A DNA stretch of 64,000 bases from Octopus vulgaris (lineage: Eukaryota), in assembly GCA_951406725.2 (NCBI GenBank), contig OX597826.1, positions 65,968,001 to 66,032,000 of the forward strand, written 5' to 3'. This document shows positions 6,916-51,400 of this stretch, one piece after another. The notes under the pieces were generated by a model that saw only the letters and a list, made by a program, of their open reading frames with translations, ran no database searches and had not been told where the DNA came from. The translations under genes were made by a program, and so were the position numbers. The first letter of the stretch is position 1, and each line of letters starts with the position of its first letter.

Positions 6916-9847
6916 ATCAAGATATAAGAGTTTGGTAGGAATTGAACTTATGTTTCACTGTTCACTCCTGTTAACCAACAATAATTTTAATTTAATATGC
7001 ATTGATAGTTAAATCCAATTCTGCCATTCTTTCTTCTCTCTCATTCATTTAAATTCACACACACAAATAGATGTGCACATATGTTCAGACACATACACAA
7101 GCATACACACACAAGCACACAAATACACAGAGAGACAACTTGAGACAGACAGGCAGCAAAAACTGACCACTTATTTAAGGAGAAATGTCAGATCAAACAA
7201 CCGAATCTCAAATAAAAGATCAAAGGTAAGAAACAAAGACAGGATCAAAATACCAAAGATCAAATCAAAGACCAAATACCAAAATAACAAAGTTCAGACA
7301 AAAGACCAAAGTACCAAAGACCAGATGAAGGATTAAAAAGAATATAACTATCACCAGACCAAAGATCAAACCAAAGACTAGATCAAAGACTGAATCACAG
7401 TAGCAAAGAAAGAAAAAAAACACAGAACAAAGAATGAGAGATCAAACAAAAATAACAAGACGAAAGGTAAGACCATAGATCAGAACAAAGACCAAGATCA
7501 GAACCAAAGATTAGACCAAAAAGCTAAAAATCAGACCAAGGTCCAAAGAAACAATGACCAAATGAAAGACTAGACCAAAGATGAAAGATCAGACCAAATT
7601 ACCATAGACCAAATATTCAAACATTAGACAAAAGATGGAAAAATTAGACCAATTATTCAAAGATTAGACCAAAGATAAAAACCAAAGATTAGACCAATAA
7701 CCAAATCAAAGACAAGGAACTAGACCATAGAATTAAATGAAGTTGTTACTTACGTTCGATAGACATGACCCTGATCTACTCTCTCTTCTACGTCTGCCAG
7801 GGCCAGGACATGAAGTGGGGAGTGTGGTAGAGCAGCATGCAACCAGGGGAAGGCAAATATGGAGAGAATACCATTGATAACACCAACCACAAACAGATCC
7901 CAGTGGTAGGCTGTGCCTTTTTTCATTCTGATGGAGAGAAATAGCAACATATCAGTGATATGATAGAGAAATGAGTCAACTTCTCAGAGATTAAACGTTA
8001 TAGCATGGTATAAGGTCAATAGGTCAACATATATCAAGCGTCTAACAAGGCAGAAAGCCAACATGTCATTGATAAAAGATTCAATATTTTCATGCATCAC
8101 AGATCAATAGTGTCAGTATCATAATATATGACAGACCAAGTGTTGATATCACAGTGTATGATAGGCCAATAGCGTCGATATCACAGAGTATGACAGACCG
8201 ATAGTGTCAATATCACAGTGTATGACAGACTGTCAGTGTCAATCTCACAGTGTATGACAGGCTGATAGTGTCAATATCACAATGTATGACAGACCAATAG
8301 TGTCGATGTCACAATGTATGTCAGACCATTAGTGTCAATCTCACAGTGTATGACAGGCCAATAGTGTTGATATCACAATGTATGACAGACCAATAGTGTC
8401 GATGTCACAATGTATGACAGACCGATAGTGTCGATGTCACAATGTATGACAGACTGATAGTGTCGATGTCACAATGTATGACAGACCGATAGTGTCGATA
8501 TCACGGTGTATGACAGACCGATAGTGTCGATATCACAGTATATGACAGTGTCAATTTCACAGTGTATGACAGACCAATAGTGCTGATATTACAGTGTATG
8601 ACAGACTGATAGTGCTGATATTACAGTGTATGACAGACTGATAGTGCTGATATTACAGTGTATGACAGATGAATAAAAATCAGTATTTAAAAGATGACAA
8701 ATCCAAAAAAAAAAAATCAATATTTTAATATATGATAATCCAACATGATCAATATTTCAGTGTATGAAAGATCAATGGTATCAATATTTTCATGTATGAT
8801 AAATCTTGTGCAAGTGCTTCTTAGTAAAACCTCAAGTCAACCCAAAACCTAGTGAGTGAAGCTGTTTAGGTGTCCATCGGATTGATTATTCTATAATTCA
8901 AAAGGTAAGGCCTTGCCACATATTGTGTTATGCAGATTCATCTTGAGAATTAATTACATTATAATTACATGTGTCACTGGAATAGTCAACCACGTGCATA
9001 TTAATTTAATGAGCCAGATGGTCAGCTGTGTCAACCAACTGAATATTTGTTGTTGAAATCAATGGTGGATCGATGATGACAATCATCATCATCACCACCA
9101 CTACTATCATCAACATCATCAGTGTCCTGTGTCCACTTTTCTATGCTGGCATGAGTTGGACAGTCCTGTCTGAGGCAGTGCTTTACAGCCTGATGCTCTT
9201 CCTGAGCTCGTCCCTTCTAGACCCTTCTTACAACATGCAGAAACATGGAGTACCTAGTCTGAAAGGATACTTATGGTAACGACTCCAAAGTGAAGTCCAT
9301 GTATACATACATACATACATACACAGACTTCTACAAGGACAGAGACTTACTCTGAAGTTTCAGACTCTGTTAGCCTCCATCAGAATGCCAGCTTCCGTAA
9401 GACTAAAAGGCCGAAACTTTGAAGTCACTGTCAATAAAATTCTTGTTTAAGAATAAATTATGTACGCAACAAAAAGCATTGAGAAAGCCTTCAGTTTAAT
9501 GTAAAATTGCTTTTATTATAGCTCAATATAAAATCAAGCATATATATATATATACATACATATATATATATATCACGTGATCACGTGACCGACCAGACCA
9601 TCAGATGTTGCTACACATCGCTGGTCACAATGCATTCACATTGTTTTAGCCTTCGAATGACACCACCCCGCTGGCTAAGCAAGCAGGCCAACAGAAGAAA
9701 GAGTGAGAGAAAGAGTGGTGAAAGAGTACAGCAGGGATCACCCCCGGAGCTTCGTGGAGCTTTTAGGTGTTTTTGCTCAATAAACACTCACAACCGCGAT
9801 CCTACGACTGCGAGTCCGCTGCCCTAACGACTAGGCCATTGCGCCTC

Positions 9848-15400: not shown

Positions 15401-18400
15401 AAATGATGATGATGATGATGATGATACATATATACGACAGGCTTCTTTCAGTTTCCGTCTACCAAATCCACTCACAAGGCTATAACAGAAGACACTTGCC
15501 CAAGATGCCACGCAGTGGGACTGAACCCGGAACCATGTGGTTGGTTAGCAAGCTACTTACCACACAGCCACTCCTGCGCCTGTGTATGTATATATATATA
15601 TATATAGATATGTTAGGTCATCCTATAAATAATGTGGGTTTATATTTATCAAAACTAAGATAAACAAAGTTCTTTTTTAATCTAAAATATACTCTCCTTC
15701 ATTTTCTACAATGCTCTTCCATTTATCCGGCAGACTTGCAAGGCCCCGCTTCCAACATTCACTTGTCCGTGACGTAAAATGTTCCTCCAGGATTGTTCTG
15801 ACCTCATCTACAGAATTCATATTTTTTCTGTCCAAATGATTTTGAAGACTGCAGAATAAATGACAATCATATGGACAATGTCCAATGAATATGGTGGGTG
15901 GGGCATTGTTTCCCATTCAAACTACTCCAGCCTTTGGAATGTCATCCTCGCTGCATGTGGCCGAACATTATCCTTATTGAAGAATACGTTTTGTCTTGAA
16001 ACCAAAGACGGTCATTTTTCTTCTAGCGCTGACTTAAGCCGCTCAAGCTGCTCACAGTAGATCTCCTTTGTTATTGTTTGGTTTGGATTTAAAAACTCTA
16101 AGTAGACTAAACCTGTCATATCCCACTAAACAGATAACACTTTATGTACCTCTATAGCCTGGGTTGCTGGTGTTTCTCCTTTCCCTACCCACTGTCTTTG
16201 GCGTTTGACATTTTTACAGAGAACCCATTTCTCGTCACCAGTCACGATTCAGTCCAAAAAAAAAGTTCATTCATCAGACACGACAGCAAAGAAGAATACA
16301 CATTCACTCTCTGCATGTGATTAGACTTGGAAAGTTTGTGAGGAACCCACTGACCCAAATTACTGGCTTTTCTGATGGCACGCAGGTGTTGATGAATGGT
16401 TGAATGACCAAATTCAAGCTTTTCTGCTTGTTCCTCAACAGTTACAATAGGATTTTGTTCCACCAGGGTTTGCAGGATGTCCTCGTTGAACTCTATAGAC
16501 CTTCCAGGACAAGACTTGTCTTCTAGGCTATAGTTTCTAGATTGGAATTTCTAGAACCATCGTTGACACTGGCTTACACTTATTGCCTTTAATGAACTCA
16601 AACCAAAATATGCCGAATATGCTCCATTGTCACTTCCATTATAACTTTGAAAAGATAAGTGTTAAAATCGAACTGCACTCTTCAAAACTTGCACTAAGAA
16701 CAAGTACAAGGTAAAATTACTACCTGCTTTTAGAGCAAGTTGAAGCAAGTAGTTTATCCCATCCCCCTTCGACTTTTAATTCATGTAATTGAAAGAAACC
16801 ACATTATTTATGGGATGACCAAATATACAGGGGTTGGACAAAATAATGGAAATACCTTAAAATTTCAAACAAATTTATTTTAATATGGGGTAGGACCACC
16901 TTTGGCAGTAATTACAGCTTGAATGTTTCCAAAGGAATTTTCGTCCATTCTTCAGCTAAAACAGTTTCTAGTTCTTGTAGTGATGATGGTAGAAGATATC
17001 GACTCCTTACTTGATTTTTTTCTAAAATGCACCATAAATGTTCAATAATATTGAGATCTAGGGACTGTGGTGGCCATGGAAAAGAAGCCTGCGCTGGTGC
17101 CACATAAAAAGCAACCAGTACACTCTGTGAAGTGGTGGGCACTAGGAAGAGCATCCAGCTGTAGAAACCATGCGCCAAGAAACAACTGTAACCTGGGCAG
17201 CTACCCAGCTGGTCAGTTCTTGTTAAGCTATGCCAGCATGGGAAGAGGAAGTTAAGTGATGATGAGGATATATACATATATATAGAGAGAGAAAGAGTGA
17301 GGGAAGAGAAAGAAAGAAAAAGAGATGTTCACACAACCATAGTGTTGGTATTCACTGAGGGTGATAATGATAATGGCAATGAGGATGCAAACTTTAATGA
17401 GAATGATGGGACTGATGATGGATATGATAAAAATGATACAGGAGGAAAAATTTAACATTAAAAACCCAGATTTTATTCCACTTGTGCCAAGAGAGCCAAT
17501 CCTTAACAACACTTAGCTAAGTAATAAATTTTTTTTTTTTAAATTAAAATATGGAGGAAACTTACGTATTTTTGAAGTTAAACAAGGATACTCCTACCCA
17601 AAGCGTTGCAAGTAGTAGAAATAAATAGAGGATACTTTTTTCTGGAGAACAGGTGTGCAGGCCATCCGTCAAAGTACTGGTCAGATTATCATGACACTGT
17701 GTGTTGTAGTATGTGTCAAAATCTACATAGATGCAAAGATATGTATTACAGATGTGCTCAAGCCTAAATAAATACGGGGACATGTTATACAAGGAGGTAC
17801 CCAAAAGTAATTGGAAACGTTTTCTGTGAGACAAGCCTGTTGCAGTTCAGACTTTTGCCGCTAGAAGCCACTTGATGCCACCCTCAGTCATCAGTCTGCT
17901 GATCAGCATCATTGAGTGAAGTCATACTGCCACATGGTGCATCATTCGTTTGCAGTGCTTCTCCCCTGTTCACCTGTTCATCAATTTTTGCAATGGCTGA
18001 ATCGAAGGAACAGCATGCTGCTGCAAAATTATATTTTCCGCTGGGGGGAAAAACGGCAGCTGAAACAGTTATCATGCCTCAGAATTACAAGGATGCTGCC
18101 ATGAGCACAGCGAAAAGCTTACGAGTGGTTTTCATGCTCTGGTGGTGGTGGTCACTTGCTGCTTGAAAGACCAGTCATGTTCAGGGCAACCATCAATCTC
18201 CCAAACTAATGGAAACATCACAAAAATCCATGAACTGATCTTGGAGGAGAGTCACTAAACGATTCAGAAGCTTGTTGATATGACTGGTGTATCCTGGAGC
18301 TCCTGCTGCCACCGAATTTTGAGCAAGGAATTTTGGATGAAAAAAGTTGCAGCAGAATTTGTGCCTCGCTTGCTCACAGAAGATCAAAAAACAGTCATTA

Positions 18401-19034
18401 CTGAATGTGCGTTGGGAACTGAAGAACAGTTGGAAGTTGATCCGGATCTTCTTTTTTGAAGGTCATCACTGACAACGAAAGCTGATGCTACGGCTACGAC
18501 ATGGAAACAGAGCAGCAACCAAATCAATGAATGCATTCAATGTGACCGCCACACCAGCAAAAAAGTGCGTCAAGTGAAGTTGTCCAATGTCCAGACGGTG
18601 CTGATTTGTTTCATCAATGCGAAAGGAAATGTCCACACAGTATTTGTTTCTCCTGGTCAAACTGTAAACCAGACATTTTACTTGGTATAAAAAGTGGAGG
18701 AAGAGAAAGAAGAAGAAGAAGAAAAGAAAAAAGGGAAAGAGGAAGAGGAAGAGGAAGATCAAGAGGAAGACGGAGGAGAAGTGGAAGATGGAAGAGACGA
18801 CGAAGAAGAAGAGTAAGACGAAGAAATGGAAGACAAAGGAGAAGATGAAGATAAAGGAAGAGGGAGGAAAAGAAGATGGAGAAAAGAGGGAGACAAAGGA
18901 GGCAGGGACGACAAAGTAAAAGGGGACGACGAAGGAGAAGAAGAAAAAGAAGACGAAGATGTGAAGGAGAAGAAGACGAAGAAGAAGAGGAAGAAAAAGA
19001 AGGGGAAGAAAAAGAAGGGGAAGAAGAAGAAGAG

Positions 19035-41506: not shown

Positions 41507-44500
41507 TATGACGGGCTCTTTCAGTTTCCATCTACCAAATCCACTCACAAGGCTTTGGTTGGCCCGAGGCTACAGTAGAAAACACTTGCCCAAGGTGCCA
41601 CACAGTGGGACTGAACCTGGAACCATGTGTTTCATAAGCAAGCTACTTACCATACAGTCACTCCTACGCCTTCACAAATACTATTGCATTTACAGAATTA
41701 CCAGAGATGGAAAGTAGAATGAATGATAATTGCCCGTACAATATAACAAGCAGCCTGTTTGAAAAGGGCTACCAGCACTAGCATAGCTGAACGGTTGATC
41801 CTGGGTGGCACTTTTGGGTTTGCTGTAGGCAATATGTGTTTTTTGTGGGGTCCAGGGGCGGCAAATCGAAGGGCAACCCTAGGCAGCGCACATATATGTG
41901 TGTGTGTGTGCGCGTGTGTGTGTGTGTATGTTTGTGTGTCTGTGTTTGTCCCCCCAACATCGCTTGACAACCGATGCTGTGTGTTTATATCCCTGAAACT
42001 TAGTGGTTTGGCAAAAGAGACCGATAGAGTAAGTACTAACTAGGCTTACAAAAAATAAATCCTGAGGTCGATTTGCTCAACTAAAGGCGGTGCTCCAGTA
42101 TGGCCACAGTCAAATGACTGAAACAAGTAAAAGAGTAAAAGAGTATCATCATCATCATTTTAACATCTACTTTTTGGATAGAGTTTATCAAGGCAGATTC
42201 TCTGCAGCTGAATATTCTTGTTGCCAAGCCTCACCTGCTTCCAAGCAAAGTAACATTTCCTCATGGCCAGACATGTCTTCCCATAATATTGCAACTGAAT
42301 GACACTGCTTGTATAACAGTGACTCTCATTTACAATTATCATGTGATTTCAATACAAGGAGACCCAAATACCTATTTCTTTACTACCCACAAGGGGCCAA
42401 ACACAGAGAGGACAAACAAGGACAGACAGACGGATTAAGTCGATTACATCGACCCCAGTGCATAACTGGTACTTAATTTATCGACCCCGAAAGAATAAAA
42501 GGCAAAGTCGACCTCGGCGGAATTTGAACTCAGGACGTAACGGCAGACGAAATATGGCTATGCATTTCGCCTGGCGTGCTAACGTTTCTGCCAGCTCGCC
42601 CCTCACACACACACACACAACAGACTATTTTCAGTTTCCATCTACCAAATCCACTCACAAGTCTTTGGTTGAACCAGGGCTCTAGTAGAAGACACTTTCT
42701 CATTGTGACATGCAGTGGTTTTTGAGCTCAAAACCACATTAATAACACACCAACATCTAATGATAATTTTAATTATGCTTTGGGTTTACTTCACTGGCCA
42801 TGTTAGCATCTTTAACAGCAAGAACATAGATAATGTTAACAGATAAAAGTGATGATGATGATGAGAAAATGGATGAACTTACCGCCATCATGTGTGAAGA
42901 GGAGAGACTTAAGAGCAGGAATATCGTTGATGTGAACCATAGCTTTGAGAATTTCTTCGATAATTTTGTCAACATTTGTCACATTCATGTTTAACAGCAA
43001 AATGGCTCTGTTTGCAAATCTTTCAATGTCCTTTGCACCACGGATTTCCTTAGAAAAGTCTTTCATTGGAACTTTCTAGAAATTAAAGAAAAATTCTTAC
43101 TTCATCCAGCGAACGTCACATCACATGATTGTCCAACACCATCTTCTGTCGTAATCATCAGATAATCAACATCAACTACCAGCATTGTGCTAGTGGAGCA
43201 CTAAGAGTACCATACGAGCGTGATCGTTGCCAGAGCAACAAGCCGGCCTCCGTGCCGGTGGCACATAAAAAGCACCATTCAAGCATGATCATTACCTGCA
43301 TCACCTTGGTGGCACATGAAAAAACATTCAAGCACGGTCATTGCCAGTGCCGCTGGACTGGCTTCTGTGCAGGTGGCACGTAAAAAGCACCATTTGAGCG
43401 TGGCTGTTGCCAGTACCGCCTGACTGGCCCTCATGCCGGTGGCACATAAAAGCACCCACTACACTCTCGGAGTGGTTGACATTAGGAAGGGCATCCAGCT
43501 GTAGAAACTCTGCCGGATCAGACTGGAGTCTGGTGCAGCCATCTGGTTAGCCAGTACTCAGTCAAATCGTCCAACCCATGCCAGCATGGAAAGCGGACAT
43601 TAAACGATGATGATGATCATGTTCATTACCATTATTGTCCATATCACTAATACACAACATCATTATCATCATTCTTCTTGCTTTCATTTGTCCTTACCTA
43701 TCATCCTCACCATCACTCATCCTTATTTATCATCCTCACCATCACTCGTCCTTATCTATCATCCTCACCATCACTCATCCTTACCTATCATCCTCACCAT
43801 CACTCGTCCTTATCTATCATCCTCACCATCACTCGTCCTTATCTATCATCCTCACCATCACTCATCCTTATCTATCATCCTCACCATCACTCATCCTTAC
43901 CTATCATCCTCACCATCACTCATCCTTACCTATCATCCTCACCATCACTCATCCTTACCTATCACCCTCACCATCACTCATCCTTACCTATCACCCTCAC
44001 CATCACTCATCCTTACCTATCATCCTCACCATCACTCATCCTTATCTATCATCCTCACCATCACTCGTCCTTACCTATCATCCTCACCATCACTCATCCT
44101 TATCTATTATCCTCACCATCACTCGTCCTTATCTATCATCCTCACCATCACTCGTCCTTATCTATCATCCTCACCATCACTCATCCTTATCTATCATCCT
44201 CACCATCACTCGTCCTTATCTATCATCCTCACCATCACTCGTCCTTATCTATCATCCTCACCATCACTCGTCTGTGGCCATGCTGGAGCACTGCCTTTAG
44301 TCGAGCAAATCGACCCCAGGACTTATTCTTTGTAACCCTAGCACTTATTCTATCAGTCTCTTTTGCCAAACCACTAAGTTACGGGGATCTAAACACACCA
44401 GCATTGGTTGTCAAGCGATGTCAGGGGGGCCAAACAGACAAACACACACACACACACACACACATATACATATATATATATATAATTAATCAATATAGGG

Positions 44501-46850
44501 TGGCAAAAAAATTTTGTAGAATTCTTTTGCCACCAGCGGCCTAGTGGGAAAAAATTTAAATAGTCATAAACCATTTTTAAGTTCAACATCACAATCAAGG
44601 AACGGCCATAATAGGCCATTCACCCACTAGAAATAACAGCCAAAAGCTTCAACCGCAAAATAACATCAATTCCGTAAACCAGGAGAAAATTAAAAAACAT
44701 TTACCCTGTAATTTCTTATACGATGCACCGTTTCGTCTACTGTTTAATGGTAAACTAACCTGATTAAATTAAATCAAGCCAATCTACCATAGGCCCTTAG
44801 ATTCATCAGTAAGAAATAGCCAGGTCGGAACAGATATTTTTCACGAGGCATTCTCGTCCCTGCCTCGGCAATATCTGACCTAAAATTTTCAAATCGTCGC
44901 ACTCGCGCCAAATCTATCGGCAGCAAATAAATATAAGCCGCCGATTCCATTACGGAATTAACCAGAAAATTCATAATTAATCAATATAGGGTGGCAAAAA
45001 AATTTTGTAGAATTCTTTTGCCACCAGCGGCCTAGTGGGAAAAAATTTAAATAGTCATAAACCATTTTTAAGTTCAACATCACAATCAAGGAACGGCCAT
45101 AATAGGCCATTCACCCACTAGAAATAACAGCCAAAAGCTTCAACCGCAAAATAACATCAATTCCGTAAACCAATATATATATATACGACAGGCTTCTTTC
45201 AGTTTCTGTCTACCAAATCCACTCGCAAGGTTTTGGTTGGCCTGAGACTATAGTAGAAGACACATGCCCAAGGTGCCATGCAGTGGGACTGAACCCGGAA
45301 CCATGTGGTTCGTAAGCAAGCTACTTACCACACAGCCACTCCTACACCTAGTTTTACCACTACTGTCATCACTGTTACCCATAATCATTATCAGCACTGT
45401 CATCATCACTACCCTCCAGCCTTCACCAGGTGTCTCGGGGAAATTTCGAACCTGGGTTCTCATTCCTACAGTATTTTTTTGATATTATTATTCAAGTCAC
45501 TGCCAGGAATTGAACTCAGAATCTTGGGGTTAGTAACCTGCGCTCTTAACCACTACACCATAATTTTTACCACTGCCATCATCACTGTTACCCATAGCCT
45601 TTATCAGCACTGTTGTCCATTTTCCCTGTCATCATTATCATCATTACTCCTCATCATTTTCACCACAGCTGTCCATCCTTTTTACCCATGGTCATATCAC
45701 CATAGTTGCCCATCATCATTAATTATAGTCATCATCACTACTGCTGTCCATCATTTTGCCATTCACTATCACCCTTAACCAACTGCTGTCCATCAACCTC
45801 ATTGCTATCATCACCATCATCGGGTGCAGGAGTGGCTGGGTGGTAAGTAGCTTGCTTATGAAACACATGGTTCCGGGTTCAGTTCCACTGTGTGGCACCT
45901 TGGGCAAGTGTCTTCTACTATAGCCTTGGGCTGACCAAAGCCTTGTGAGTGGATTTGGTAGATGGAAACTGAAAGAAGCCCATCGTATATATGTATATAT
46001 GTGTGTGTGTGTGTGTGTATATTGTGTAATCTGTGTTTGTCCCCACAACATCGCTTGACAACCGATGCTGGTGTGTTTAGGTCCCTGTAACTTAGAGGTT
46101 CGGCAAAAGAAACTGATAGAATAAGTACTAGGCTTACAAAGAATAAGTTTTTGGGTTGATTTGATTCGACTAAAGGTGGTGCTCCAGCATGGCCACAGTC
46201 AAATAACTGAAACAAGTAAAAGAATAAAACAATCCTCATTGTCACCAGTGCTATCCATCCTCCTCATCCTGATTGTCCTTTACTACGACCATCATCATCA
46301 TCATCATCATCACTGGTAAAAATCTTAATGAGTTGAATAGGCCGTTTAGGTTTCAATTCTTGAATCGAACCTGTTCACATACAATGGTGTTTGTCTTTTG
46401 GAAGGCCACAACTTCTTACTCTATGTGCTCAGTCACAACACTCATCAATCATGAATCCTATATTGGAACTTGTGTTTTCTGTCTAGGATGGGAAAACAAA
46501 CTTCCCAGCAAGTATAATGCTCCTGTGTTGTGGACCTTGGTCAAAGTACTTCACACAACTTGCCCCTTGTTGCATGCACGGCAATGGGCTGCATTGAACT
46601 CATATTAGTTAACAGAAACTGTGGTAAGTTAAGGTAATGAGAAAAGGTTGAGTGGAAATAGGGGACAGGGCATATGAAGGATGGTTATTAGTGTCTCCTT
46701 CCACTATATAAAGTAGGGAAAGAGAGAAAGAAGGGAGCAAGAGAAAATGAGAGGAGAGAAAGAGAGAGAGAATGAGAATGAAAAAGGAAGAAGAACAGAA
46801 AAGCTATTTACCTCATGCCTGGAATAAATAAGGGACCTCTCAGCAATATC

Positions 46851-48418: not shown

Positions 48419-51400
48419 GTTTTGGAGATGAACTTGCCAGGCAAGCAATTTTGAGCACAGACCACATGTTAAAAATAGACTGCAGTATGGAAGACATGTT
48501 AGTCATTCGAAAACACACAAGACTGAAACTGCTAACTTCATTTAAACATTTATTATTTATTATATGGTGTCAAAAGTTAAAATTTTTATTGCTTGAATTG
48601 CGACCCTGATCCCTGACAAGGATACAATGCATCTCTTAAGGATAATGGTTTCAAATTTCACCACAAGACAGCAATTTTAGAGAGAGGAGAGTTAGTCAAT
48701 ATCATCAATGCCAGTACTTGACTGGTACTCTAGTTGACCCTGGAGGGATGAAAGGCAAAGTTGGCATCATCAGGATTTGAACTCAGAACAAAAAAAAAGA
48801 ATCAGATCAAAAGCCACAAAGCATTTTTTCTGTTCCACATAAAAAGCACTGTTGCTGGTGCCACATAAAAAGCACCCAGTACACACTGTAAAGTGGTTGC
48901 TGTTAGGAAGGGCATACAGCTGTAGAAACCATGCCAGAACAGACAATGGAGCCTGGTGCAGCCCCCAGCTTTACGAGCTCCTGTCAAACATCTAACCCAT
49001 GACAGCATGGAAAAATGAACATAAATGATGATGATGACTAATGGCTCTGCCAATCCTCTGCCCTCTATTGTTTCTGATTTAGAGACAAGGCCTGCAATTT
49101 CAAAGGGTAAGGGTTACTTGACAACATCAACCAGAGAGAACTAGGTGAGCTGGCAGAAATGTCAGCACGCCAGGCAAAATGCTTAGCAGTATTTCGTCTA
49201 TCTTTATGTTCTGAGTTCAAATTCCGCCGAGGTTAACTTTGCTTTTCATCCTTTTGGGGTCGATAAATTAAGCACCAGTTATGCACTGGGGTCGATGTAA
49301 TCAACTTAATCCCTTTGTCTGTCCTTGTTTGTCCCCTCTATGTTTAGCCCCTTGTGGGCAATAAAGAAATAAGAACTAGGCTGGCACTTCATTGACATGA
49401 AAAGGATAAAAGACAAAAGCTGGCTTCAGCAGGATTTGGACGAAGAATATAAAGAACCAGAACAAACATTGCAAGACATTTTGCCTGGCGCCTTAATTGA
49501 ATCTGCCTATTTACCACAATTCATGTAATAATGATAATAATATGCTTCATTAGCAAAACACGAGCAGAATAAAACATACATACCCTTTTCATCGCTCCCA
49601 ATTGAAGTATCTTTTGTGTCAACTATCTCTGGCTTCAACTCACAGGTGGTAGTTTGTTCAGAGGAGCCCAAACCATTCGAAAAGGTTTCATCTGGCAAAA
49701 ATGCAGGATTGTCTTCCTCCAAGAAACTGAAGTTCTTTAAATATACAGTTGTCTCTTCGGTACTCGTCCCGTCTGAGACGCTACAAAGAAACAAACAAAT
49801 AAAACAAACAACACATATCAGAATGCAGACATTCAGACATTTTGGTCAGCACCACCAAAACCAGCATCATTAAAACCATCATCATCAAAATCATCATTTA
49901 GTTTGTCTTCTATTTTGGGATCGATTGTACAGGTCGGAAATACAAACACTGCCTTCTACTATAGGCACAAGGCCTGAAATTCTGGGGGGAGGGATGGAGT
50001 GGGGCTAATCAATTAAATCAACCTCAGTGCTTGATGGGTACTTATCTTATTGACCTTAGAAGGATGAAAGCCAAAGCTGACCTCAGTGGAATTTGAACTC
50101 AGAATGTAAAGACGGACAAAATGCCGCTAAGCATTCTGCCTGGTGTGCTAACAATTCTGCCAGCTCACCATCTTTTGACATACAAACATAGTACCAATTG
50201 TTTTCATGTTCTACCATCTTTGTGGTGCCAAACATCCTGAGATGTAACCCTACTTATTCTTACAGCTATTTCGTCTGTCTTTATGTTCTGAGTTCAAATT
50301 CTGCCTAGGTCGATTTTGCTTTCATCCTTTCAGGGTCGATAAATTAAGTACCATTTGTGTACTGGTGTTGATCTAATTGACTAGGCCCCTCAACGCCAAA
50401 ATTTTCAGGCCTTGTACCTAGAGTAGAAAAGATTATAGAAGTAGAGGCAGCTTTATGTGGATTGGTATGGAAAAGTTTAAGATAGTAATATTTGTCATGG
50501 TCAGTTATCTATGGACATTTGAACAATGTTTCACATTAAAATGCTTAAAGGAAAATATTTTTTTGCTGCACCTCCCCCTTTTTTTTTTTTTTTTCTTGGT
50601 TCAGTCCAGTAGACTTGCCATGCAGGGGCACTGTCTTGAAGAATTTTTAGTCAAACAAATTGGCCTCTGCACTTTTTTTAAAACCTGGTACTTATTTAAT
50701 CAGTTTCTTTTGTAAAACTGCTAAATTACAAGGATGTAACCACACCAACAACGGTGCCAAGCAGTGGTGGTGGTGGTGGTGGTGGACAAACATAGACACA
50801 AAGAAACACACATACAAGTGTGTATGTGTTTGTGTATTTATACATACACACAGAGGCTTCATTCAGTTTCCATCAACCAAATCCACTCACAATGCTTTGG
50901 TCAGCCCAAGGTTATAGTAGAAGACACTTGCCTAAAGTGCCATGCAGTAGGACTGAACCTAGAACCATGTGGTTAAGGAAGCAAGCTCCTTACCACACAG
51001 CCATGGCGAAAAAAGGGGACAGGAAGCAGCAATAACTGAAAAAAAAATTTTGAAGAAATATCTTCTCTTAAATGTTTTAATGTGTAACAATGTTCAAACA
51101 TACCTGTCTATGCCCCAGCACTCAATCTGTCCCTGTTGAGTCTCTCCTCTATAAACTCATTTTCATAACACTCAACCCTCCATCATTCTTCTGACTACAA
51201 CACTATTTGCTCAGATGCTGTAATCATAAATGCTCAACTGCACATATTTCATCCATCTCCCTATATTGTGCTACCAATTACCTCTTTCCAGTTATGCCCT
51301 AGGTCAGCCCCGATACAGAAAGCCTACAATTAAGCATTCCAGCAATGACCATCCCAATTTATATTTATAAATAGTTGTCCCACCTTTCAGTGTATATTCC

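Follow-up and report, generated by a model that had tools for sequence, protein, structure and literature searches.

The window analysed here is a stretch of 64,000 nucleotides from Octopus vulgaris (assembly GCA_951406725.2, contig OX597826.1, positions 65,968,001 to 66,032,000 of the forward strand), and its positions are counted from the first letter. On its minus strand it carries an SLC4A11-like gene, which holds an insertion made of 1.4 copies of a 491-nt unit with a predicted type I hammerhead ribozyme. This insertion is a real, young copy of a retrozyme whose hammerhead variant is unusual and whose Penelope-type footprint is exceptionally clean; self-cleavage is predicted from the sequence, and RNA circles are proposed.

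The insertion (Table 1) contains two direct repeats of 200 bp (44482-44681 and 44973-45172) that are 100% identical and spaced 491 bp apart. Both these repeats and the 1.4 tandem copies of a 491-nt monomer had been reported in a preliminary description of the window, and both are confirmed. The repeats are the ends of 1.4 head-to-tail units and not long terminal repeats (LTRs): unit positions 292-491 recur upstream of the complete unit, and the 691-bp insertion is 5'-truncated at unit position 292. Unit positions p run along the minus strand, such that the window coordinate equals 44973 - p. The longest ATG-initiated frame of the unit, located on the ribozyme strand and read as a circle, has 66 codons, and no longer open reading frame (ORF) occurs, in agreement with the earlier statement that a convincing ORF is lacking. 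The placement of the insertion within the (TA)n of a repeat also holds. Its target is a dispersed repeat, which is interrupted within its (CA)n(TA)n tract and has an intact inverted copy at 45823-46198; both insertion flanks align to this uninterrupted copy with an overlap of 13 nt, as expected from a short target duplication. The closest genomic copies of the complete unit show 99% identity. A 29-bp tandem array of ~20 copies (43684-44271) directly adjoins the interrupted repeat.

Table 1. Coordinates of the insertion, its predicted ribozyme and its surroundings in the window
Feature	Position	Strand	Remarks
Whole insertion	44482..45172	minus	691 bp, 1.4 units; direct (non-inverted); long 3' end of the family (B)
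Complete unit	44482..44972	minus	491 nt, 37% G+C
Partial upstream unit	44973..45172	minus	unit positions 292-491; same sequence as 44482-44681; no ribozyme
Type I hammerhead motif (predicted)	44711..44817	minus	stems I-III and core
Predicted self-cleavage site	44718..44719	minus	GUA; cut predicted between 44719 and 44718
19-bp hairpin	44747..44790	minus	14 Watson-Crick and 5 G-U pairs; within the 57-nt insert that replaces loop 2
Family end site A	44587..44591	minus	unit ~382-386, ...UUGAUUGUGAU; internal here, outer arm end in other copies
Family end site B	44482..44487	minus	unit ~486-491, ...UUGAUUAAUUAU; abuts (TA)n; 3' end of the window copy
106-nt 'tail' between sites A and B	44482..44587	minus	contains GGUGGCAAAA...UUUUGCCACC hairpin
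Interrupted host repeat, left part	44272..44481		ends in (CA)n(TA)n
Interrupted host repeat, right part	45173..45348		begins with (AT)n
Host exon downstream of insert	42881..43075	minus	weak match on its own to SLC4A11 residues 117-161 (E 0.028); SLC4A11-like N-terminal domain
Candidate host exon upstream of insert	49585..49780	minus	AG/GT borders, phase fits next exon; candidate only, no Pfam match

The hammerhead described earlier on the minus strand (8-bp stem I, CUGAUGA, GAAA, near-palindromic stem III and a GUA site) is upheld by position-by-position reading. Stem I consists of 8/8 Watson-Crick pairs (44817-44810 with 44718-44711), and CUGAUGA (44809-44803) and GAAA (44734-44731) form the core. 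Stem II (44802-44798 with 44739-44735) has an A10.1·C11.1 mismatch at its base, and the near-palindromic stem III is located at 44730-44721 (CGGUGCAUCG). The proposed extension of stem II by a 19-bp hairpin with five G-U pairs is likewise correct (Table 1). The 141-nt hammerhead fragment has a folding z of -4.39, which is equalled by none of 200 shuffles. For the whole unit, z is similar on the two strands (-6.58 minus, -6.15 plus), so that it is the ribozyme motif and the G-U pairs, rather than the stability of the whole, that speak for one strand. A search with the Rfam hammerhead model, suggested in the preliminary description, gave no match in the window (E<=5) or on an A-U copy of the unit (E<=10). 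As the model also missed a hand-read minimal hammerhead in the pseudo-LTR (pLTR) of a resident Penelope-like element, this test is insensitive here.

The 3' strand of the stem II hairpin (44765-44742, minus; unit 206-231) resembles, with one gap, the proximal promoter element of the genome's U1/U2 genes (ATCAG...TTAC). A small nuclear RNA-type promoter matrix of 26 U1/U2 upstream regions scores best at unit 206-231 on the ribozyme strand; 10 of 150 shuffles do as well with the gap (p ~0.07) and 81 of 150 without it.

The hammerhead family in the octopus genome

The unit in the window is one of many. A genome-wide census by exact pattern matches over the hammerhead, the counts of which are lower bounds, yielded 192 C11.1 units and 2,885 in which this position holds another base, at least 3,077 altogether, whereas the reversed-pattern controls gave 0. 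At ~2.5 hammerheads per element (256 in 103), this suggests roughly 1,200 insertions. In a DNA similarity search of the genome with the unit, in which the best 40 of 1,433 candidates were scored, the best copies proved 97-99% identical and were located on many chromosomes. The preliminary assignment to a recent, multicopy, non-coding hammerhead retroelement of the retrozyme or Penelope kind is thus well founded.

Our family sample comprises 103 elements in 99 loci (L-numbers denote sampled loci), of which 19 were obtained by similarity to the window, 40 and 29 from two position-ordered lists, and 11 from the C11.1 list. One of the 103 elements lies at a locus edge, leaving 102 for most tallies; L023 and L032 (a single array split across two loci) and duplicate similarity-search loci were left out of the element counts. 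In 72 of the 102 elements an arm is longer than one unit, and arms reach 9.4 units, which agrees with the greater-than-unit-length, permuted tandem copies that had been anticipated. There are no true LTRs, the apparent repeats being permuted unit ends (primer-binding sites and polypurine tracts were not searched for). The family displays the testable features of non-LTR retrozymes: a hammerhead in each tandem unit, no coding capacity, low G+C, dispersed multicopy distribution and target duplications of more than 4 bp. In the literature on cephalopod retrozymes and Penelope twin priming we found no description of this 491-nt family, which Repbase/Dfam or bioRxiv supplements may hold. Family sequence is listed for 24 public runs, none of them recorded as RNA, and the contigs of four public runs cover all 29 bins of the unit. 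Contigs reveal neither strand, ends, level nor circularity of an RNA, and repeats are carried along in introns and untranslated regions; we therefore draw no conclusion on expression.

Among the 256 full hammerheads, 251 have the 11 core bases intact, and the 11 invariant core positions (C3-A9, G12-A14, A15.1-U16.1, NUH site scheme) show no element-level change in 97-102 elements. By comparison, N7 is occupied by U (79), C (8), A (7) or G (5), and N17 by A (61), C (40) or U (1; n=102), such that 40/102 elements have a GUC site. At the 10.1-11.1 pair, 57 of 98 elements have A-U, 31 have A·C, eight have G·U, one has U·U and one a gap, in a sample that is enriched for A·C. The A·C of the window copy marks a young subfamily that accounts for ~6% of units. 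The stem III variants are palindromic or nearly so; three of the four self-pair fully as dimers (-13.6 to -18.8 kcal/mol), and the fourth reaches -7.1 kcal/mol. Dimer-type activity has been reported for metazoan type I hammerheads (PMC4209133), and the axolotl ribozyme HHR_Amex2 retains cleavage, most efficiently in dimeric form, despite a U·U where helix II begins (PMC7229834). G10.1-C11.1 is therefore typical rather than obligatory. Standard hammerhead models miss a large family.

Insertion footprint and resident Penelope-like elements

A TA run is touched by 100 of the 102 elements, and in 77 it is present on both sides. The 3' ends form two clusters, site A at unit 380-390 and site B at unit 486-491, 106 nt apart. 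The 77 head-to-head elements comprise 67 with one A and one B end, one with two B ends, none with two A ends and nine with one off-site end. The A+B combination is thus found in 67/68 cases, compared with 50% expected under independent choice (p 2e-19), and in the position-ordered subsets in 30/33 and 18/21. The remaining 25 elements end at A (12), at B (11) or elsewhere (2). Neither the pair of fixed 3' ends nor the two-armed form had been noticed in the preliminary description, the overall reading of which is supported in part: the kind of retroelement was correctly recognized, whereas the expected majority of G10.1 copies and an adjacent Penelope ORF were not found (see below).

Inner junctions differ at every locus and mostly have an overlap of 0-5 nt, and each end junction shows a match of 2-4 nt AU to (TA)n. 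The 5' breakpoints occur all round the unit; of 168, 3.8 would be expected at the cut site, and 0 lie there. In imperfect targets (L018, L055, L130), duplications of 14-15 bp are visible. Median divergence rises from 0.27% within an arm to 0.42% between the two arms and 4.9% from one locus to another, and seven variants, each private to one sampled locus (five loci), are fixed in both arms; both arms of an insertion come from one source or haplotype. Subfamily variants are fixed in all units of an array in 201 of 220 cases, which, together with arms of up to 9.4 units, points to repeated copying of a monomer. At L031:4458-5000 (G000:C3:29.54 Mb), the 5' side of the array runs into a ~510-bp duplicate of genomic DNA that lies 2.4 kb away, followed by a short inverted B end and (TA)n; this junction is a template switch to nearby DNA during insertion.

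The same genome contains Penelope-like elements with a reverse transcriptase (RT) plus a GIY-YIG domain at the C terminus, as determined by a GIY-YIG protein search in which the best 150 of 6,136 candidates were scored. They represent at least two families, both of which insert in (TA)n and have two fixed ends. In 3/3 inverted copies observed, a short end is combined with a long one, the tails measuring 40 nt (L100, L102) and ~30 nt (L107).

One of the resident families is very young (L098:245-5460, at G000:C6:133.34 Mb; L095-L106; L114). It is located in (TA)n, has a period of 4.7 kb and fixed ends 40 nt apart, and encodes overlapping ORFs of 479 amino acids (no known family) and then, in another frame, 781 amino acids with RT and GIY-YIG, suggesting a frameshift. 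By its Cys-rich linker, we take this family to be of the Neptune type. TGACGTC/ATTGG motifs abound in its pLTR, where the only stretch resembling a hammerhead is degenerate. The second family (L107:4218-4983 and 1821-2586, L110) carries the hand-read minimal hammerhead, with a CCGAAGA core and a palindromic stem III, and includes the inverted copy with its ~30-nt tail on one side.

The preliminary description had suggested a check for adjacent Penelope RT/GIY-YIG ORFs. Two Penelope proteins compared with 114 retrozyme locus records by tblastn identified remnants within a few kb in eight; on inspection of four of these (L133, L136, L129, L055), no remnant proved to be joined to the unit. No RT/GIY-YIG ORF is present in the unit or joined to it at the inspected loci, and the unit is not an autonomous Penelope element. 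A pattern search for a short-stem-II relative gave 0 matches, as did a search for a partner in a metagenome collection. The unit and the sampled Penelope loci have no DNA in common, and no coding body was found joined to an array at the inspected loci; mobilization in trans we infer from the footprint.

A proposed mechanism and its alternatives

It is very likely that this retrozyme is moved by a Penelope-type enzyme. With somewhat less confidence, we consider the window copy likely to be a 5'-truncated copy of a non-LTR retrozyme inserted in trans by a Penelope-like RT and GIY-YIG endonuclease, probably from circular RNA. A monomeric circle is our preferred usual template, with some reservation, and for the inverted arms we lean to the same degree towards double priming rather than fold-back or resolution.

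In this model, tandem copies would be transcribed, and paired, dimer-assisted hammerheads would cut the transcripts into 491-nt monomers, which a host ligase could close into circles. A Penelope protein would then make a staggered cut in (TA)n, and each freed 3' end would prime internally on the same RNA, one at site A and the other at site B, aided by the 2-4 nt AU match. Each enzyme would travel round the circle for 0.05 to 9 turns, and joining of the two complementary DNAs (cDNAs) by microhomology would create head-to-head arms; where one arm is lost or never made, direct copies such as that in the window would result. Published data are consistent with several of these steps: an anole Penelope protein, whose preference is for AT-rich DNA, cleaves and extends the two strands, has two internal start sites by which the tail is defined and probably, according to prediction, acts as a dimer (PMC11167929), and circular RNAs have been shown for coral, mussel and axolotl retrozymes (PMC7229834). 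We further put forward, tentatively and with less than even confidence, that the family is a circular-RNA parasite of a Penelope element with which it has no sequence in common: a dimeric enzyme would grip the ring at two fixed sites 106 nt apart, prime each from a different strand of a staggered cut in (TA)n and roll round in both, and the hammerhead would be an active natural variant without G10.1-C11.1, extended by the 57-nt insert in stem II and overlooked by Rfam.

A number of observations weigh against this account. With respect to the ribozyme, in the best fold of the window copy the core is engaged by stem III, at a predicted stability 3.0 kcal/mol above that of the hammerhead fold, and in 25/25 representatives the hammerhead fold is predicted to be 1.2-5.7 kcal/mol less stable than the best one. 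Covariation is thin, as only 2 of 36 pairs change on both sides (one stem I pair in one sequence, one stem II pair in four; 97.4% of cells are paired) and 64 of 500 shuffles reach the score. That the 11 core positions are unchanged is only mildly unlikely, as 104 of 477 positions vary. Copies had been expected to carry mostly G10.1, whereas pattern counts across the genome revealed 427 G10.1 units, none of which combines G10.1 with C11.1 (A10.1-C11.1 control 139), and the commonest pair is A-U. With respect to integration, the 106-nt tail far exceeds the 30-40 nt that Penelope elements are reported to have, and the lengths of the two arms are not significantly correlated (rho 0.21, p 0.09, n 67). 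No convincing match to unit DNA was detected by blastn in 20 Penelope loci (one 19-nt match, E 0.73), and neither these loci, the 114 retrozyme locus records nor the short-stem-II pattern revealed an autonomous partner. Finally, 12 within-locus polymorphisms occur in at least two units, three of which are common to the outermost units of both arms (L027, L030, L074), and at L059 and L122 variants are found in every second unit. A single monomeric circle accounts for such outer-outer sharing and alternation less well than do gene conversion, assembly noise or a template of several units. At L086, variants recur in array units 4 and 8; along with L059 and L122, this hints at multimeric templates or later block duplication.

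The patterns at L027, L030, L074, L059 and L122 favour a template other than the monomeric circle, namely a linear (or multimeric circular) read-through transcript of the array, copied by the same Penelope-type enzyme, with the ribozyme being dispensable and circles incidental. In agreement, the anole Penelope protein inserts uncleaved RNA equally well when the hammerhead is mutated (PMC11167929), and the A·C subfamily has spread to 192 units. Linear templates and 5' truncation, however, would shorten arrays in each round and leave new variants mosaic, whereas subfamily variants are fixed across all units in most cases, arrays extend to 9.4 units and the hammerhead core is conserved. We therefore regard a read-through template as doubtful, though the foremost of the alternatives.

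Unlikely, too, is an origin of the inverted arm by fold-back self-priming or by copying of the first cDNA, with endonuclease resolution accounting for the missing 106 nt and no second priming taking place. Self-priming has been proposed for rotifer Penelope elements (PMC3846280) and endonuclease resolution as well (PMC8557442), the haplotype and private variants are common to both arms, and 5/77 junctions are near-perfect palindromes with both breakpoints at the same unit position. Most junctions, though, join unrelated breakpoints with their 0-5 nt overlap, and in 36/67 copies the A arm is longer than the B arm minus its tail, so that a simple fold-back of the B arm needs a later deletion. 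Moreover, direct copies end at A about as often as at B, and priming occurs on both strands in vitro (PMC11167929).

We attach a small probability to the unit being the solo pLTR of an unsampled autonomous Penelope element, with the copies representing ordinary 5'-truncated Penelope insertions. Whereas the footprint is identical to that of Penelope elements, only the best 150 of the 6,136 GIY-YIG candidates were scored, and Xenopus retrozymes are homologous to Penelope pLTRs (bioRxiv 10.64898/2026.07.22.740005), the arrays here run from unit to unit, up to nine times, without a coding body; at the inspected loci no coding sequence is joined to their 5' side, and no short-stem-II relative was seen. 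A DNA-level satellite or repeat akin to miniature inverted-repeat transposable elements, or an assembly artefact, with a chance hammerhead-like motif might explain the missing Rfam match and a covariation not above shuffles, but is highly improbable in view of the dispersal of ~3,000 units, the 5' ends of which vary while the 3' ends are fixed, junctions that differ at every locus, core variation confined to tolerated positions and the presence of the family in public runs of three organisms.

If the tentative reading of a dimeric enzyme that grips one RNA ring at two fixed sites is correct, one step would explain both the tandem arrays of animal retrozymes and the inverted shape of Penelope copies with a one-sided tail. 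The available literature leaves open how animal retrozymes re-enter DNA and why head-to-head Penelope copies have a one-sided tail. A single octopus genome here provides ~3,000 young units that carry haplotype markers, a short RNA whose two start sites are mapped, and young Penelope elements with intact ORFs, so that the mechanism can be tested both in vitro and genome-wide.

Host gene and relation to known systems

The best human match of the exon at 7753-7935 (minus strand) is SLC4A11 (E 3e-22), and by this similarity the host gene is SLC4A11-like and encoded on the minus strand. As gene and predicted ribozyme lie on the same strand, the ribozyme is in host-gene sense, and the earlier placement within SLC4A11 in this orientation stands in the form of an SLC4A11-like gene. 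Spliced contigs from two public runs (X1, X3) delimit a further exon at 17566-17722, which they join to other sequence, with one side matching the exon near 14.3 kb; these runs therefore contain spliced host RNA. A host intron also harbours a high-copy repeat at 17750-18699, for which the depth in a DNA run is far above single copy. Near it, at 15680-16550, there are transposase-like reading-frame fragments, presumably mariner-like.

The preliminary description had proposed that an active ribozyme would cut the SLC4A11 pre-mRNA. This is not supported: a hammerhead cut is possible but probably weak or slow, given one ribozyme, a short dimer-type stem III, A·C at the base of stem II and the more stable competing fold. 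Most likely, the effect on the host pre-mRNA is at most small, and a lone intronic copy in this gene probably has little consequence. With a single ribozyme, the window copy cannot release unit-length RNA by double cleavage, nor does it qualify as an active copy under the two-unit definition of Li et al. A single, weakened ribozyme most likely makes it a dead end.

The family resembles the metazoan non-LTR retrozymes of coral, mussel and axolotl (Cervera and de la Peña 2020, PMC7229834; Li, Clavereau, Pollet 2026, bioRxiv 10.64898/2026.07.22.740005) in its non-coding, low-GC tandem units with one type I hammerhead each, its thousands of copies, its duplications of more than 4 bp and the co-existing Penelope elements. 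The 491-nt unit compares with 150-450 bp in the former report and 51-972 bp in the latter. Unlike the retrozymes described, it has a 57-nt insert in place of loop 2 and never G10.1-C11.1, and whereas Xenopus retrozymes are homologous to the resident pLTR (bioRxiv 10.64898/2026.07.22.740005), no homology was detectable here in 20 Penelope loci. In the available parts of these two reports no retrozyme copies with two arms and fixed ends are described, and the word 'inverted' occurs 0 times in the main text of PMC7229834.

Endonuclease-containing (EN+) Penelope-like elements of the Neptune type (Craig et al. 2021, PMC8557442; Arkhipova et al. 2013, PMC3846280) share with the family partial tandems, 5' truncation, a head-to-head inverted copy, (TA)n targets, a tail that is often present at one end only and duplications of 8-15 bp, and the palindromic stem III is likewise known from Penelope hammerheads (Cervera and de la Peña 2014, PMC4209133). 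In contrast to Penelope elements, the 491-nt family lacks an RT/endonuclease ORF, its tail measures 106 nt instead of 30-40, and the whole unit is repeated up to nine times.

In twin priming of LINE-1, two target ends prime on one RNA, and an inverted 5' segment is joined by microhomology, as is the case here. The second start of LINE-1 is variable, however, and its arms cover different parts of the RNA, whereas in this family both starts are fixed and the arms cover the same sequence, often several times.

The closest parallel in vitro is offered by the Poseidon element of Anolis (PAc; Frangieh et al. 2024, PMC11167929), which is alike in its two internal starts, the cutting and extension of both strands, the AT-rich targets and the predicted dimer. 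For PAc, neither a strand-dependent start site nor homology between RNA and target was seen, whereas the two ends of an insertion here almost always use different sites and match the target over 2-4 nt AU. The strict rule of one A and one B end is what this family adds to the anole Penelope work, where no strand difference was seen.

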